This document shows, piece after piece, positions 2,519-29,993 of a stretch of DNA of 64,000 nucleotides. A model generated the notes under the pieces. It saw nothing but the letters and a program-made list of their open reading frames with translations. It ran no database searches and was not told where the DNA came from. The DNA is from Eledone cirrhosa (lineage: Eukaryota): contig OZ024761.1 of assembly GCA_964016885.1 (NCBI GenBank), positions 22,010,001 through 22,074,000 of the forward strand, given 5' to 3'. Made by a program: the position numbers and the translations under genes. The number at the start of each line of letters is the position of its first letter. Position 1 is the stretch's first letter.

Positions 2519-2642
2519 TCCACTGATGAGTTTATAAGAGCCCGCTTGTGTATAAAACTATGGATTATATACAAGTTTCTACATAACCTGGAAATTATTT
2601 ATCCCAAATTGTAGAAATCTTATAACGAAACGGCCGTCTGGA
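2519..2642 (+). ncRNA. Type I hammerhead ribozyme with branched stem II and minimal palindromic stem III
   Basis: tcca-CTGATGA-gtttataaga...tcttataac-GAAA-cggccg-TC-tgga. Stem I is tcca/tgga and the core is intact. Predicted cleavage after C2638. Confidence 0.8.
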
Positions 2643-3227
2643 AGGAAAGAGATATTTATTTAATTATGTCTCATATAAAATAATACAACCAGCTATCCAC
2701 GGAATACTGATTAGTTAGCAGCCCAAACACTAAATTGGGATAATACTTAGGTATATCATAATGTTTGTTGAGTGAGATGGAGTTGGTCAGAGTATCGCTT
2801 AAGGCTTTCTCTGTTTATGTATTGTATATATATATATATATATATATATATATATATATATATATATATACACACACACACATATATAGTTTTAGTAAGG
2901 TGATGTCAGTGGCCTGTTTATTAAAGTATGTCTTGTTATTAAAATATATATTGCAACATATCATCATCATCATCGTTTAACGTCTATCTTCCATGCTAGC
3001 ATGGGTTTAGACATATATATATATATATGTTGCAATATATATATAAATATATGTATATGTTACAATATATATGTATATATGTTGCAATATATATGTATAT
3101 ATGTTGCAATATATATGTATATTTTGTAACACACACATATATATATATATATATATATATGTGTTGCAATATCCGTAAGTGTGAAAAGGAAAAAAGAAAA
3201 GATTGGTGATCTCAGATTGTTAAAGCT

Positions 3228-5160
3228 AATGGAGATGACAATGGCAATGACAAGACAAGTGTAGAGAGAGGTTGTACTGAGAAAGGTCATGTCCGACCCA
3301 TGCCTGGAACAATGGAGATGACAATGACAAGACAAGACAAGTGTAGAGAGAGGTTGTACTGAGAAAGACATGTCCGACCCATGCCTGGAACAATGGAGAT
3401 GACAATGGCAATGACAAGACAAGTGTAGAGAGAGGTTGTACTGAGAAAGACATGTCCGACCCATGCCTGGAACAATGGAGATGACAATGGCAATGACAAG
3501 ACAAGTGTAGAGAGAGGTTGTACTGAGAAAGACATGTCCGACCCATGCCTGGAACAATGGAGATGACAATGGCAATGACAAGACAAGTGTAGAGAGAGGT
3601 TGTACTGAGAAAGACATGTCCGACCCATGCCTGGAACAATGGAGATGACAATGGCAAGACAAGTGTAGAGAGAGGTTGTACTGAGAAAGACATGTCCGAC
3701 CCATGCCTGGAACAATGGAGATGACAATGGCAATGACAAGACAAGTGTAGAGAGAGGTTGTACTGAGAAAGACATGTCCGACCCATGCCTGGAACAATGG
3801 AGATGACAATGGCAATGACAAGACAAGTGTAGAGAGAGGTTGTACTGAGAAAGACATGTCCGACCCATGCCTGGAACAATGGAGATGACAATGGCAATGA
3901 CAAGACAAGTGTAGAGAGAGGTTGTACTGAGAAAGACATGTCTGACCCATGCCTGGAACAATGGAGATGACAATGGCAAGACAAGTGTAGAGAGAGGTTG
4001 TACTGAGAAAGACATGTCCGACCCATGCCTGGAACAATGGAGATGACAATGGCAATGACAAGACAAGTGTAGAGAGAGGTTGTACTGAGAAAGACATGTC
4101 CGACCCATGCCTGGAACAATGGAGATGACAATGGCAATGACAAGACAAGTGTAGAGAGAGGTTGTACTGAGAAAGACATGTCCGACCCATGCCTGGAACA
4201 ATGGAGATGACAATGGCAATGACAAGACAAGTGTAGAGAGAGGTTGTACTGAGAAAGACATGTCTGACCCATGCCTGGAACAATGGAGATGACAATGGCA
4301 AGACAAGTGTAGAGAGAGGTTGTACTGAGAAAGACATGTCCGACCCATGCCTGGAACAATGGAGATGACAATGGCAATGACAAGACAAGTGTAGAGAGAG
4401 GTTGTACTGAGAAAGACATGTCCGACCCATGCCTGGAACAATGGAGATGACAATGGCAATGACAAGACAAGTGTAGAGAGAGGTTGTACTGAGAAAGACA
4501 TGTCTGACCCATGCCTGGAACAATGGAGATGACAATGGCAAGACAAGTGTAGAGAGAGGTTGTACTGAGAAAGACATGTCCGACCCATGCCTGGAACAAT
4601 GGAGATGACAATGGCAATGACAAGACAAGTGTAGAGAGAGGTTGTACTGAGAAAGACATGTCCGACCCATGCCTGGAACAATGGAGATGACAATGGCAAT
4701 GACAAGACAAGTGTAGAGAGAGGTTGTACTGAGAAAGACATGTCCGACCCATGCCTGGAACAATGGAGATGACAATGGCAATGACAAGACAAGTGTAGAG
4801 AGAGGTTGTACTGAGAAAGACATGTCCGACCCATGCCTGGAACAATGGAGATGACAATGGCAATGACAAGACAAGTGTAGAGAGAGGTTGTACTGAGAAA
4901 GACATGTCCGACCCATGCCTGGAACAATGGAGATGACAATGGCAAGACAAGTGTAGAGAGAGGTTGTACTGAGAAAGACATGTCCGACCCATGCCTGGAA
5001 CAATGGAGATGACAATGACAAGACAAGTGTAGAGAGAGGTTGTACTGAGAAAGACATGTCCGACCCATGCCTGGAACAATGGAAATGACAATGGCAAGAC
5101 AAGTGTAGAGAGAGGTTGTACTGAGAAAGACATGTCTGACCCATGCCTGGAACAATGGAC
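3228..5160. repeat. 82/76-bp minisatellite, about 24 copies, derived from a LINE 3' end
   Basis: Unit aatggagatgacaatggcaatgacaagacaagtgtagagagaggttgtactgagaaagacatgtccgacccatgcctggaac. The array ends in ggacgttaaa. Confidence 0.95.
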
Positions 5161-5165
5161 GTTAA

Positions 5166-27081: not shown

Positions 27082-28524
27082 TATATATGAGCTGGAGAAG
27101 GTCATCTGCTCTGGCTTGGCTCATGTCTGGACAACTCATCCAAACCATGCTCCCATGGAGAAATGGACATTAAATGGTGATATATAATATATATATCACC
27201 AAGGGCGGTGCCCCAGCATGGCCTCAGCCGGATGGCTGAAACAGGTAAAAGAGTAAAAGAGTATAATATATATATATATTGTTATACTTTGGGAGGGTCA
27301 TGTTGCCAATAAGAAACACACGCACCAGTTGCTTTCACTTCAATTTATTATATATTTATAAATTTATAAATTTACAAACGATTTCAGATAAAGAATCTTG
27401 CTAAACAAATTCAGAAACGAAATATATATATATGTTTGTGTGTATTGAATTATGAAAGTAAAACAAAAGTCAGAGATAGGTTCTTAATTAGTTCATTGTT
27501 TTACAATCATGCCAGAGGGTTGATTGATCATCGTAGATCAATATATTGACTAATAGGTAGTGGTTATGTCTCTACCTATTTCTAGTCTCAAAATCCCTGA
27601 TCCATCCCACCACCTTCCTTCAACCCTTCTGTATCGTTGTTGTGGTATATATATATATATATATATATATATATATCTTCCTGCTATATCAAGCGTTAAC
27701 CTAATATATCCTTTCCATATACTGTACCAATTGTGTTGTTATTTCTGTTTACCTTTTATATATATATATATCTATATATATATATATATATATATATATA
27801 TATGTGTATGTATGTATGTATGTATGTATGTATATATATATATATATATATGTATGTATATATATATATATAGATATGTATGTATATATATATATATATA
27901 TATGTATGTATGTATGTATGTATGTATGTATGTATATGTATGTATATATATATATGTATGTATGTATGTATGTATGTATGTATGTATGTATGTATGTATA
28001 TATATATATATATATATGTATGTATATATATATATATATATATATATATATGTATGTATGTATGTGTGTATATATATATATATATATGTATGTATGTGTG
28101 TATATATATATATATATATGTATGTATGTATGTGTGTATATATATATGTATGTATGTATGTGTATATATATATATATATATATATATATATATATATATA
28201 TATACATACATATATATATATATATATATATATATATATATATACATACATACATATATATATATATATATATATATGTATGTATGTGTATATATATATA
28301 TATATATATATATATATATATATGGCCACTGCCTTCAGTTGTGTTTTCTTACTGTCACACTTTATAACTTTATAACTGTTGTGTTTACTCTAGACAGTAA
28401 TGTATCAACATATCGCTATTGAGTGCTTTGTGATTGCCCCAAACAACTTGATTAGTACCTGCTATATGGCAGCTACAACTTTGATTCATACCTGATATAT
28501 ATATAAAATTTAATATAGAAATGG

Positions 28525-28571
28525 TTTCTACAGGACTAGAACTGTTTCATTTGTAAGTCATCATCAGGAAA
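28525..28571 (-). ncRNA. Hammerhead motif with intact core but decayed stem II
   Basis: Minus strand reads tttc-CTGATGA-tgacttacaaat-GAAA-cag(ttctagtc)ctg-TA-gaaa. Same family as the palindrome arms at 29242-29381. Confidence 0.6.
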
Positions 28572-28944
28572 TTCAGCTGTTGGTATTTATGTTTTCTGGT
28601 GGTTGGGGAAGGTGATGATTTTGAGGATGGGTAAAGGTTGTTAGCCAAGGGATTTTAAAGAACAGAATATTTATTGTAGTGTTATAATAGTTACACTTTA
28701 TTTCTGTATTGAGTACTTTTACTCCTTGTTTGGAAACTCAAACATTTGCATATGTATATATACAGAAACACACACAGTGTTCTGATCTGTTGTTCATAGT
28801 AACCACCAAGGAAAGAAAGAACTGAATGTTAAAAGCATGAGGTTGATAAAAAGAGATTCGCTCATATTCTTACAACATGGCCACGATGTTTCAGCAAAGT
28901 ATGTATTCACTAAAGTTCATCATGCTGAAGTTTGGTGAATACAC

Positions 28945-29993
28945 CCAGTCGATGTTGTAAAATGGTTTTGTTTTAGGAAGGGCATCCAGCTATAGAAAGG
29001 ATTCCCAAATGAGCAAGTGGTGGCCACCAAACCTGTCTAGTCTCAGAATATTACACCCCTTTCCAACTCCTGCAAGCAGGAAAAACAGACTTAAAACAAT
29101 GATAATGGTGGAAACAATTTTTATTACATTAAACGGGACATTATCAAGTAGCTATCAACATTATCACAGCAAGAGGGACATTATCCAGTAGCTATGAACA
29201 ATATCATGTCAAAGTACTCAGTACATTAGTAGAGCGTAAACATCAAATCTAATACAGAAATGGCTTCTACAGGACTAGAACTGTTTCATTCGAAAGAAAT
29301 TATCAAGAAAGCTTTCTTGATGATTGCTTTCGAATGAAACAGTTCTGGTCCTGTTGAAGCCATTTCTGTATTAAATTTGATATCATCATCATCATCATCA
29401 TCATCATCATCATCATCATCATCATCATCATCATCATCGTTATTTAATGTCCATCTTCCACTCTAGAATGGGTTGGACGGTTTTGTCGCACTTGAGGCAA
29501 GATTGGTCGGATGACTGTCTCACTCGTACAGAACTGTTTCTGGTTGGTTTTCTATAGCCAGATTCCCTTCCTAACACTAACCACATTTACAGTGTGGACT
29601 GGGAGCCTTTTTACTGTGTCTCCTACATGACCACATTACAGTGTGGACTGGGAACCTTTTTACTGTGTCTCCTACATGACCACATTTACAGTGTTGACTG
29701 GGAGCCTTTTCACTGTGTCTCCTTCATGACCACATTACAGTGTGGACTGGGAGCCTTTTTACTGTGTCTCCTTCATGACCACATTACAGTGTGGACTGGG
29801 AGCCAGTCGATGTTGTAAAATGGTTTTGTTTTAGGAAGGGCATCCAGCTATAGAAAGGATTCCCAAACGAGCAAGTGGTGGCCACCAAACCTGTCTAGTC
29901 TCAGAATATTACACCCCTTTCCAACTCCTGCAAGCAGGAAAAACAGACTTAAAACAATGATAATGGTGGAAACAATTTTTATTACATTAAACG
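28945..29993 (+). repeat. 191-bp direct duplication (28945-29135 and 29803-29993) of a SINE-A-like 3' half
   Basis: The two copies differ at one position that I could see. Confidence 0.85.
29242..29381. repeat. 140-bp loopless palindrome of two head-to-head degenerate hammerheads
   Basis: Centre aaag|cttt at 29311/29312; 70-bp arms with 5 differences. Each arm reads tttc-TTGAT(G/A)A...GAAA-cag...ctg-T(A/T)-gaag. Confidence 0.85.

Follow-up and report, generated by a model that had tools for sequence, protein, structure and literature searches.

Type I hammerhead motifs in and just upstream of MED13 introns of Eledone cirrhosa as probable truncated terminal repeats of Penelope-like elements

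We analysed a 64,000-nucleotide stretch of the Eledone cirrhosa genome (assembly GCA_964016885.1, contig OZ024761.1, positions 22,010,001 to 22,074,000 of the forward strand; hereafter the window), which carries exons of the gene MED13, and found in it six type I hammerhead ribozyme motifs, three of them intact and three decayed; several stand in head-to-head inverted copies. The motifs are probably truncated terminal repeats (pLTRs) of several Penelope-like element (PLE) families that inserted independently in, or just upstream of, the mapped MED13 introns; a Penelope parent element is likely, judging from the sequence architecture of the copies. The motifs are thus of a known kind, namely ordinary retroelement debris as described since 2014. 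A first-pass annotation, made from the letters of the same stretch, had proposed remnants of Penelope-like or retrozyme elements; relative to that reading, the placement of several motifs in head-to-head inverted copies is new.

Both strands were scanned with a descriptor that combines a CUGANGA and GAAA core, a UH cleavage site and three helices in type I order, and dinucleotide shuffles of the 31,703 non-tandem bases in 1-kb blocks (n=400) served as the control. The window has 18 CUGANGA cores, and at three of them the type I hammerhead is complete: at 2519-2642 on the plus strand and at 22815-22893 and 14298-14364 on the minus strand; the number of cores is itself ordinary (16.9±4.1 in shuffles). 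Under the strict setting, with at least 4, 3 and 4 base pairs in stems I, II and III, shuffles hold 0.0125 matches on average, with one match in 5 of 400 and two in none. With 3, 3 and 3 base pairs two matches are again found in none of the 400 shuffles, and under the loosest setting (3, 2 and 3) three matches are found in one. Taken together, 2519, 14298 and 22815 are real type I hammerhead motifs; the earlier annotation had called all three intact, and all three pass the strict descriptor, under which two or more matches occur in 0 of 400 shuffles. The opposite view, that all motifs are chance matches in AT-rich DNA, is true of a candidate at 14084 and possible for one at 13814 (both plus strand), and it agrees with the lack of any Rfam match at gathering level. 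For the strict trio as a set the shuffles have refuted it, and the variants listed for one repeat family, described below, avoid core and stems; as an account of all motifs its probability is next to nil. The 14084 candidate (14084-14165, plus strand, U4 changed to C, stems 3/5/1), previously described as a core-mutated hammerhead, had to be dropped, because its class, in which one core mismatch is allowed, has 3 matches in the window against 1.95±1.28 in 60 shuffles; no inverted arm was found for it in the window.

Rfam adds a partial view of the same motifs. A gathering-level scan of the window gave no matches. The Hammerhead_1 model (RF00163) aligns across all of its 45 positions to 2517-2644 on the plus strand, with a score of 19.5 bits (E 0.041) that lies below the gathering cut-off of 34, whereas 22815 and 14298 are matched by none of the Rfam hammerhead models. 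No hammerhead family appears among the 150 of 204 matches listed in an E-value scan of the whole window, nearly all of which are microsatellite or hairpin artefacts. Further candidates were set aside: relaxed matches at 32962, 62300, 23293, 26385 and 8067 on the minus strand, at 20012 on the plus strand and elsewhere belong to classes at shuffle level or are without stem II. CUGAUGA at 12799 (minus strand) and 33515 (plus strand) falls at the same place in two copies (85%) of a repeat resembling a short interspersed element (SINE) and is without hammerhead topology. Both of these copies (12788-13011 and 33300-33526) carry GAAA before CUGAUGA and a 4-bp hairpin.

Penelope-like origin is supported because the copies are 5'-truncated and inverted, because read depth falls along the element, and because a tail is present at one end. 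Five of the 11 local inverted repeats in the masked window involve these hammerhead motifs. Inverted arms enclose 22815 (77 bp, 92%) and 2519 (about 80 bp), and inverted arms form 29242-29381 and 13667-13899. The richest evidence comes from the hammerhead at 22815-22893, which is antisense in the MED13 intron 21300-23127 and has stems of 7, 4 and 5 bp, a core at 22886-22880 and a GUC cleavage site with C17 at 22822. Its stem III is closed by a 10-nt loop, which is predicted to be a monomer type. The 3' part of the repeat, present in very high copy, occupies 22594-22814 on the minus strand and ends near 22631-22639 or, with a tail of about 45 nt further, at 22594; the hammerhead therefore lies about 180-220 nt from the element's 3' ends. 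On the other side, 11 nt upstream of stem I, lies an inverted copy of the element's 3' end (22904-22980, plus strand), 77 bp long and 92% identical to 22631-22707.

Of seven public runs, none recorded as RNA, four were aligned to 22560-23330 at 80% likeness. X1 and X2 are one sample and X5 consists of raw reduced-representation DNA reads from another study; summed contig depths are not copy numbers, and ratios alone are used. In X1 and X2 the depth is 5-11 over the exon, about 1,400-1,600 over the 5' part of the hammerhead (22846-22897), 1,700-2,900 over 22794-22845, 5,800-8,200 over 22768-22793, 21,000-29,000 over 22716-22767 and 32,000-83,000 over 22560-22715, and it reaches 25,000-164,000 on the inverted arm (22898-23001). 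The raw reads of X5 give a profile of the same shape. In this family the 3' part is thus covered more than 30 times as deeply as the ribozyme, and this gradient is that of a 5'-truncated retroelement and not of a miniature inverted-repeat transposable element (MITE). Reads of X5, the one run, from a reduced-representation library, that carries the evidence for the tail, depart into unrelated flanks at 22639 (124 reads, agreement 0.36) and at 22594 (100 reads, 0.35); the inverted arm in the window stops at the mirror of 22631, without the tail extension. Several of the 15 joints listed, out of 50, run from truncation points at 22624, 22640, 22664, 22764, 22793 and 22799 to 22894-22931, at or beside the start of the inverted arm, and one of them, the ribozyme-less joint 22793/22918, has a depth of 322 in X1 and 224 in X2 and is spanned by 24 reads of X5.

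These joints bear on the proposal that both 22815 and 2519 belong to MITE-like DNA elements, which would be bounded by terminal inverted repeats and carry a hammerhead by accident. Inverted arms do enclose both motifs and one inverted joint is amplified, as such a proposal would have it, but a MITE is expected to show uniform depth and fixed ends, and the 22815 unit has depth varying more than 30-fold, many joint breakpoints and an element that continues about 40 nt past one arm only. The depth profile largely refutes a MITE for 22815, and for the two units together we regard it as very improbable.

The reads also place the copy in the window within its family. At 22868 its base disagrees with 98% of the X1 depth, and at 22837 with 73%, and the copy is an ordinary diverged member of a multi-copy repeat family. 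Among the variants listed for X1, all seven at a frequency of at least 10% fall in loops, which make up 36 of the 79 hammerhead positions (p=0.003), a pattern that suggests selection on the ribozyme in parent elements; no compensatory pair changes are present among the X1 variants listed. The run X4, whose kind is not on record, looks like spliced RNA: its depth is zero over 23028-23105, and a contig of 2,186 nt joins at 23126, two bases before the exon at 23128, matching the AG at the end of the previous exon. A 140-nt contig of the same run covers 22768-22897 at a depth of 268. Of its 20 differences, one falls on the cleavage site and one beside it, so that this relative may or may not be an intact ribozyme. 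In depth, relatives of the ribozyme region exceed the MED13 contig about 19-fold, contigs giving neither strand nor level, and the ribozyme region stands at about 0.4 of the depth of the 3' part in X4 versus 0.02-0.04 in the DNA-like runs.

A second family shows the inverted arrangement in its most compact form. The decayed hammerhead 28525 (28503-28571, minus strand) ends at a (TA)n run and has a C3-G8 core, a GUA cleavage site and a stem III of 4 bp with an 8-nt loop; its core and stems I and III are present and stem II is absent, as the first-pass annotation had described it. Two head-to-head copies of 70 bp, 93% identical, occupy 29242-29381, with a U3-A8 core at 29306 (minus strand) and a U3-G8 core at 29317 (plus strand); the centre of inversion lies 5 nt upstream of each core, and a (CAT)n run then follows. 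Because 28525 is 85-86% identical to each arm over 69-71 nt, all three copies belong to one family, whose hammerhead lies about 22 nt from the 3' end. All three have U-U in place of the G10.1-C11.1 pair, which may therefore be a trait of the family and not decay of a single copy. The 3/8 positions read C-G in 28525, U-A at 29306 and U-G at 29317, a series that transitions alone could produce. When constrained to its catalytic fold, 28525 lies 3.8-8.6 kcal/mol above its lowest-energy fold in a model that ignores core tertiary contacts, and it is predicted to misfold.

The imperfect head-to-head palindrome at 13667-13899 (71% identity) is less clear. A relaxed match, with a U3-A8 core at 13814 and stems 5/3/4, is present in its right arm only; matches of this class number five in the window (the three strict ones, the copy at 29306 and 13814) against 0.77 per shuffle, with a maximum of 4 in 60 shuffles. 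We therefore treat 13814 on the plus strand as a possible hammerhead, unproven on the basis of its sequence. Of the two decayed head-to-head pairs proposed earlier, the one at 29242-29381 stands, and the one at 13718 is a real palindrome whose status as a hammerhead is unproven. The accompanying claim that no stems are shared except between 28525 and 29242 holds insofar as no wider alignment likeness was found, and fails in one detail: the ends of stem III (ACAG...CUGU) are common to the 22815 and 28525/29242 families. Four base pairs of common stem III sequence are too little to indicate kinship.

The hammerhead at 2519-2642 (plus strand) has contiguous stems I, II and III of 4, 3 and 4 bp and a GUC cleavage site. 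Stem I pairs 2519-2522 with 2639-2642, the core is at 2523-2529, GAAA is at 2627-2630 and C17 at 2638; the stem II domain (2530-2626) is branched and 97 nt long. Its stem III (2630-2637) is self-complementary, loop-less and 8 nt long, with a self-duplex energy of -14.1 kcal/mol, as in a dimer type. The constrained catalytic fold lies 6.6 kcal/mol above the lowest-energy fold in a model that ignores core tertiary contacts. The folding z-score of the isolated motif is weak (-1.75), as is that of 22815 (-1.61), whose catalytic fold lies 5.2-7.7 kcal/mol above the lowest-energy fold, core tertiary contacts again being ignored. The enclosing arms are at 2322-2403 on the left (core 2358-2403, 83% over 47 bp) and at 2887-2967 on the right, where a (TA)n run precedes the arm. 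A stable hairpin (2425-2515) stands directly upstream of the hammerhead.

The third intact motif, at 14298-14364 (minus strand), is a minimal type I hammerhead with stems of 8, 3 and 4 bp and an AUA cleavage site, antisense in the intron 13557-14633. Its 8-bp stem I is A-U rich, its core is at 14356-14350, its stem II opens with a G-U pair, and its stem III is near-palindromic with a duplex energy of only -2.2. The catalytic fold lies 8.4-14.0 kcal/mol above the lowest-energy fold, in which a competing hairpin buries the core; the strong folding z-score (-4.67) is due to this non-catalytic fold, and 14298 probably misfolds. Directly upstream there is a stable hairpin (14370-14392) that competes for the very bases by which the core is otherwise buried; it could serve as a folding switch.

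These features agree with what has been described for PLEs in the parts of the literature available to us. PLE insertions show 5' truncation, an adjoining inverted 5'-truncated copy, a tail of 30-40 bp at one end and microsatellite targets (PMC8557442), the tail being explained by two start sites of the reverse transcriptase (PMC11167929). The present copies share the truncation, the adjoining inverted copy, the tail at one end and AT-rich or microsatellite neighbours; they differ in the length of the tail (37-45 nt), and without a reverse transcriptase or GIY-YIG frame no clade can be assigned. Animal PLE hammerheads number thousands per genome, are heterogeneous and mostly single motifs without an open reading frame, have palindromic stem III and a U3-A8 variant, and occur in opposite-strand pairs 100-700 bp apart (PMC4209133). 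Likewise, the motifs here have type I topology, a palindromic loop-less stem III (2519, 14298), a U3-A8 core (29306, minus strand), many heterogeneous families and close opposite-strand pairs. Differences from that set are the closed stem III of 4-5 bp with an 8-10 nt loop in 22815 and the 28525 family, the 97-nt branched stem II of 2519, the absence of the G10.1-C11.1 pair from 14298 and the 28525 family, and the fact that 2519, 14298 and 22815 need no extra residue separating position 9 from position 10.1. Penelope elements are abundant in coleoids (PMC8967140), and 31 recently active Penelope-like families are reported from Octopus vulgaris in a text whose accessible part makes no mention of ribozymes (PMC13282606). 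With PLE hammerheads so numerous and heterogeneous and Penelope elements so abundant in coleoids, a single long gene can be expected to hold hammerheads of several unrelated families.

Under a Penelope-like origin, reverse transcription of element RNA would begin close to the 3' end, with AT-rich or microsatellite DNA as the target, and break off early, between 70 and a few hundred bases on; often a further truncated copy would be left, inverted relative to the first. The ribozyme would be included only where copying had reached it. Its task in parent elements would be to cut RNA that is multimeric or read-through. In the intronic copies it is likely a passenger, because 2519 would need a partner RNA for stem III, 14298 and 28525 are predicted to misfold, and 22815 is off the strand of the MED13 transcript. 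Published experiments, as far as the accessible text goes, report that hammerhead cleavage is dispensable for insertion in vitro (PMC11167929) and that a single minimal PLE hammerhead shows no detectable cleavage in vitro (PMC4209133).

Several observations weigh against a Penelope-like origin. Pfam profiles of reverse transcriptase and GIY-YIG have no match in 125 of the 155 open frames of at least 55 aa in the window, the other 30 being mostly tandem-repeat and MED13-exon frames; the first-pass annotation had likewise reported no such frame, and truncated copies would be expected to lack one. A search of metagenome contigs with two exact 23-nt patterns, for traces of a parent element, gave no match for either. 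Evidence from depth and tail concerns the 22815 family only. The closed stem III of 22815 (5 bp) and of the 28525 family (4 bp) is unlike the minimal palindromic stem III of animal PLEs, and a large helix III has been reported for fungal and protist PLEs (PMC4209133, consulted in part). Even for 2519 and 22815 the catalytic fold lies 5-8 kcal/mol above the lowest-energy fold. Comparison of the window with itself found no inverted arm for 14298 or for 28525. An inverted derivative of the 22815 family, represented by the 22793/22918 joint, appears to have been amplified as a unit, which a one-off insertion does not explain. Finally, no direct repeat of a hammerhead-bearing unit, as in the partial tandem arrangement of pLTRs, is present in the window among the matches listed, and such a repeat is not required of truncated copies.

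The closest competitor is the proposal that the motifs are solo copies of non-autonomous retrozymes without long terminal repeats (non-LTR), mobilised by PLE enzymes and spread through circular RNAs, and are not the ends of coding PLEs. Animal non-LTR retrozymes resemble the present motifs in being non-coding, carrying type I hammerheads and occurring in a mollusc (PMC7229834; bioRxiv 10.64898/2026.07.22.740005); according to the portions of these texts available to us, mussels have about 5,000 type I hammerheads in retrozyme repeats (the former), solo monomers are common and retrozymes derive from the pLTRs of PLEs (the latter). No coding frame stands near the hammerhead motifs, and the 140-nt contig at depth 268 over 22768-22897 in the spliced-looking run X4 agrees with this proposal. 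The differences are that no tandem arrays are present here (none of the seven motif ranges has masked bases in arrays called by Tandem Repeats Finder (TRF) with periods up to 500), that copies are head-to-head and not head-to-tail, and that the 3' part is in strong excess. That the 3' part outnumbers the ribozyme part 10-50-fold, together with inverted truncated copies and a tail, fits a truncated longer template better than unit-length monomers, and we consider solo retrozymes quite unlikely. Accordingly, the Penelope half of the original proposal is retained, and the tandem retrozyme half is unsupported, with no motif in a tandem array.

The host gene is MED13 on the plus strand, as the earlier mention of a Mediator gene implied. 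MED13 proteins are the matches of the exon at 49.5-50.2 kb, the best named ones coming from bivalves, gastropods and an annelid (53-43% identity), and a tblastn search with eight MED13 homologues places about 14 exons on the plus strand between 12.6 and 63.5 kb. The first six, refined by a check of splice sites and frame, are 12586-12666, 13411-13556, 14634-14816, 20186-20531, 21216-21299 and 23128-24363; they have AG/GT ends throughout and together form a single open frame. Additional exons are placed at about 42183-63510. No MED13 exon was found in the window upstream of 12586 with tblastn and a profile of 10 homologue N-termini, and the first 135-140 codons, approximately, are absent from the window. 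Because 2519 lies upstream of an internal exon of a gene whose first codons are absent from the window, it is most likely in a MED13 intron, on the sense strand. The 2,186-nt contig of X4 has 1,300 nt before the exon at 23128, of which the five mapped upstream exons account for 840; the remaining 460 nt or so, a matter of arithmetic on an unread part of the contig, come close to the missing codons and therefore place 2519 within the MED13 transcription unit, on the sense strand.

This placement bears on two functional readings. One is that MED13 has domesticated the motifs as intronic ribozymes with a regulatory role for the host, similar to the ultraconserved intronic hammerheads of amniotes. 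The motif 2519, which is intact, sense and endowed with an unusually elaborate stem II, would suit it; 22815, however, is an ordinary diverged repeat copy in antisense, 2519 is of the dimer type, and the remaining motifs have decayed or are predicted to misfold; we consider domestication extremely improbable.

The other reading is that a hammerhead on the sense strand cleaves the pre-mRNA and is purged or decays, which leaves the intact intronic ones in antisense. In published work, available to us in part, its premise is sound for a fast engineered intronic hammerhead, which caused up to 20-fold mRNA loss in zebrafish, three weaker ones causing less than 3-fold (PMC11856399), and retrozymes are depleted in Xenopus genes, the accessible text giving no orientation test (bioRxiv 10.64898/2026.07.22.740005). 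The sole motif predicted to be competent as a monomer, 22815, is antisense, which is one case. Against this stand the intact sense motif 2519, most likely intronic, the predicted failure of 14298 to fold catalytically, and the lack of detectable in vitro cleavage by single minimal PLE hammerheads in the part of PMC4209133 that we consulted. Relative to the MED13 strand, two intact motifs are antisense and one is sense (binomial p=1). Intronic retroelements show a general antisense excess, which would mimic the same pattern. We find this reading doubtful for the window, and the antisense bias proposed by the first-pass annotation is unsupported: 14298 folds well only non-catalytically, and of the sense motifs that the annotation called decayed, some belong to symmetric palindromes, with one arm per strand by construction and no information on orientation, and the other is at chance level (14084). 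The proposed clustering between 2.5 and 29.4 kb is likewise not significant, since, with non-tandem DNA distributed as it is, all three strict matches would land in the window's first half with a probability of 0.23.

The motifs lie among many other repeats. The window is AT-rich, and the tandem-repeat mask (TRF) covers 32,297 of its 64,000 bases. Large minisatellite arrays in MED13 introns (3060-5237, 35600-36900, 39380-41100, 47100-48260, 50370-51400 and 55300-60000) have periods of about 20, 23, 29 and 48 bp and longer, the 48-bp type occurring at several places and on both strands. Besides the two SINE-like copies mentioned above, interspersed repeats of this sort are found at 19020-19302, 25857-26180 and 26397-26688, the span 25857-26688 forming a head-to-head pair (324 bp, 86%). 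A MITE-like element of about 270 bp at 26815-27085 has short terminal inverted repeats between TA dinucleotides, and a 36-bp part (27029-27064) is matched by 14423-14458, which on the strand of the 14298 hammerhead stands just upstream of that motif. Long intronic hairpins are also present at 20030-20085, 32760-32970, 28902-28943 and 22301-22361; the first two, with a common short motif, may represent another repeat family. The 1,236-nt MED13 exon at 23128-24363 carries long poly-Gln, poly-Asn and poly-Gly tracts that have no match in bivalve and gastropod homologues.

In the literature searched, which was mostly open-access and without supplements, we found no description of hammerheads in octopus or in this host and no orientation test for intronic retroelement hammerheads; these families may already be present in PLE consensus files supplementary to PMC8557442 or PMC13282606. 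The residual value of the window lies in the closed stem III, predicted to be of the monomer type, of the 22815 family. It is conceivable, if unlikely, that families with such a closed stem III are abundant, cleave as monomers in contrast to the dimer-dependent hammerheads typical of animals, are still transcribed, as the 22815 family would be, and have been purged from the sense strand of introns genome-wide, with dimer types such as 2519 spared. If the 22815 family does cleave as a monomer, the large excess of ribozyme-less copies would make selection against pre-mRNA cleavage testable within one genome, and comparison with those copies would separate such selection from the general antisense bias of intronic retroelements. 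Were such purging real, pre-mRNA self-cleavage would be a measurable force on the orientation of retroelements, with ribozyme-less truncated copies as a built-in control.

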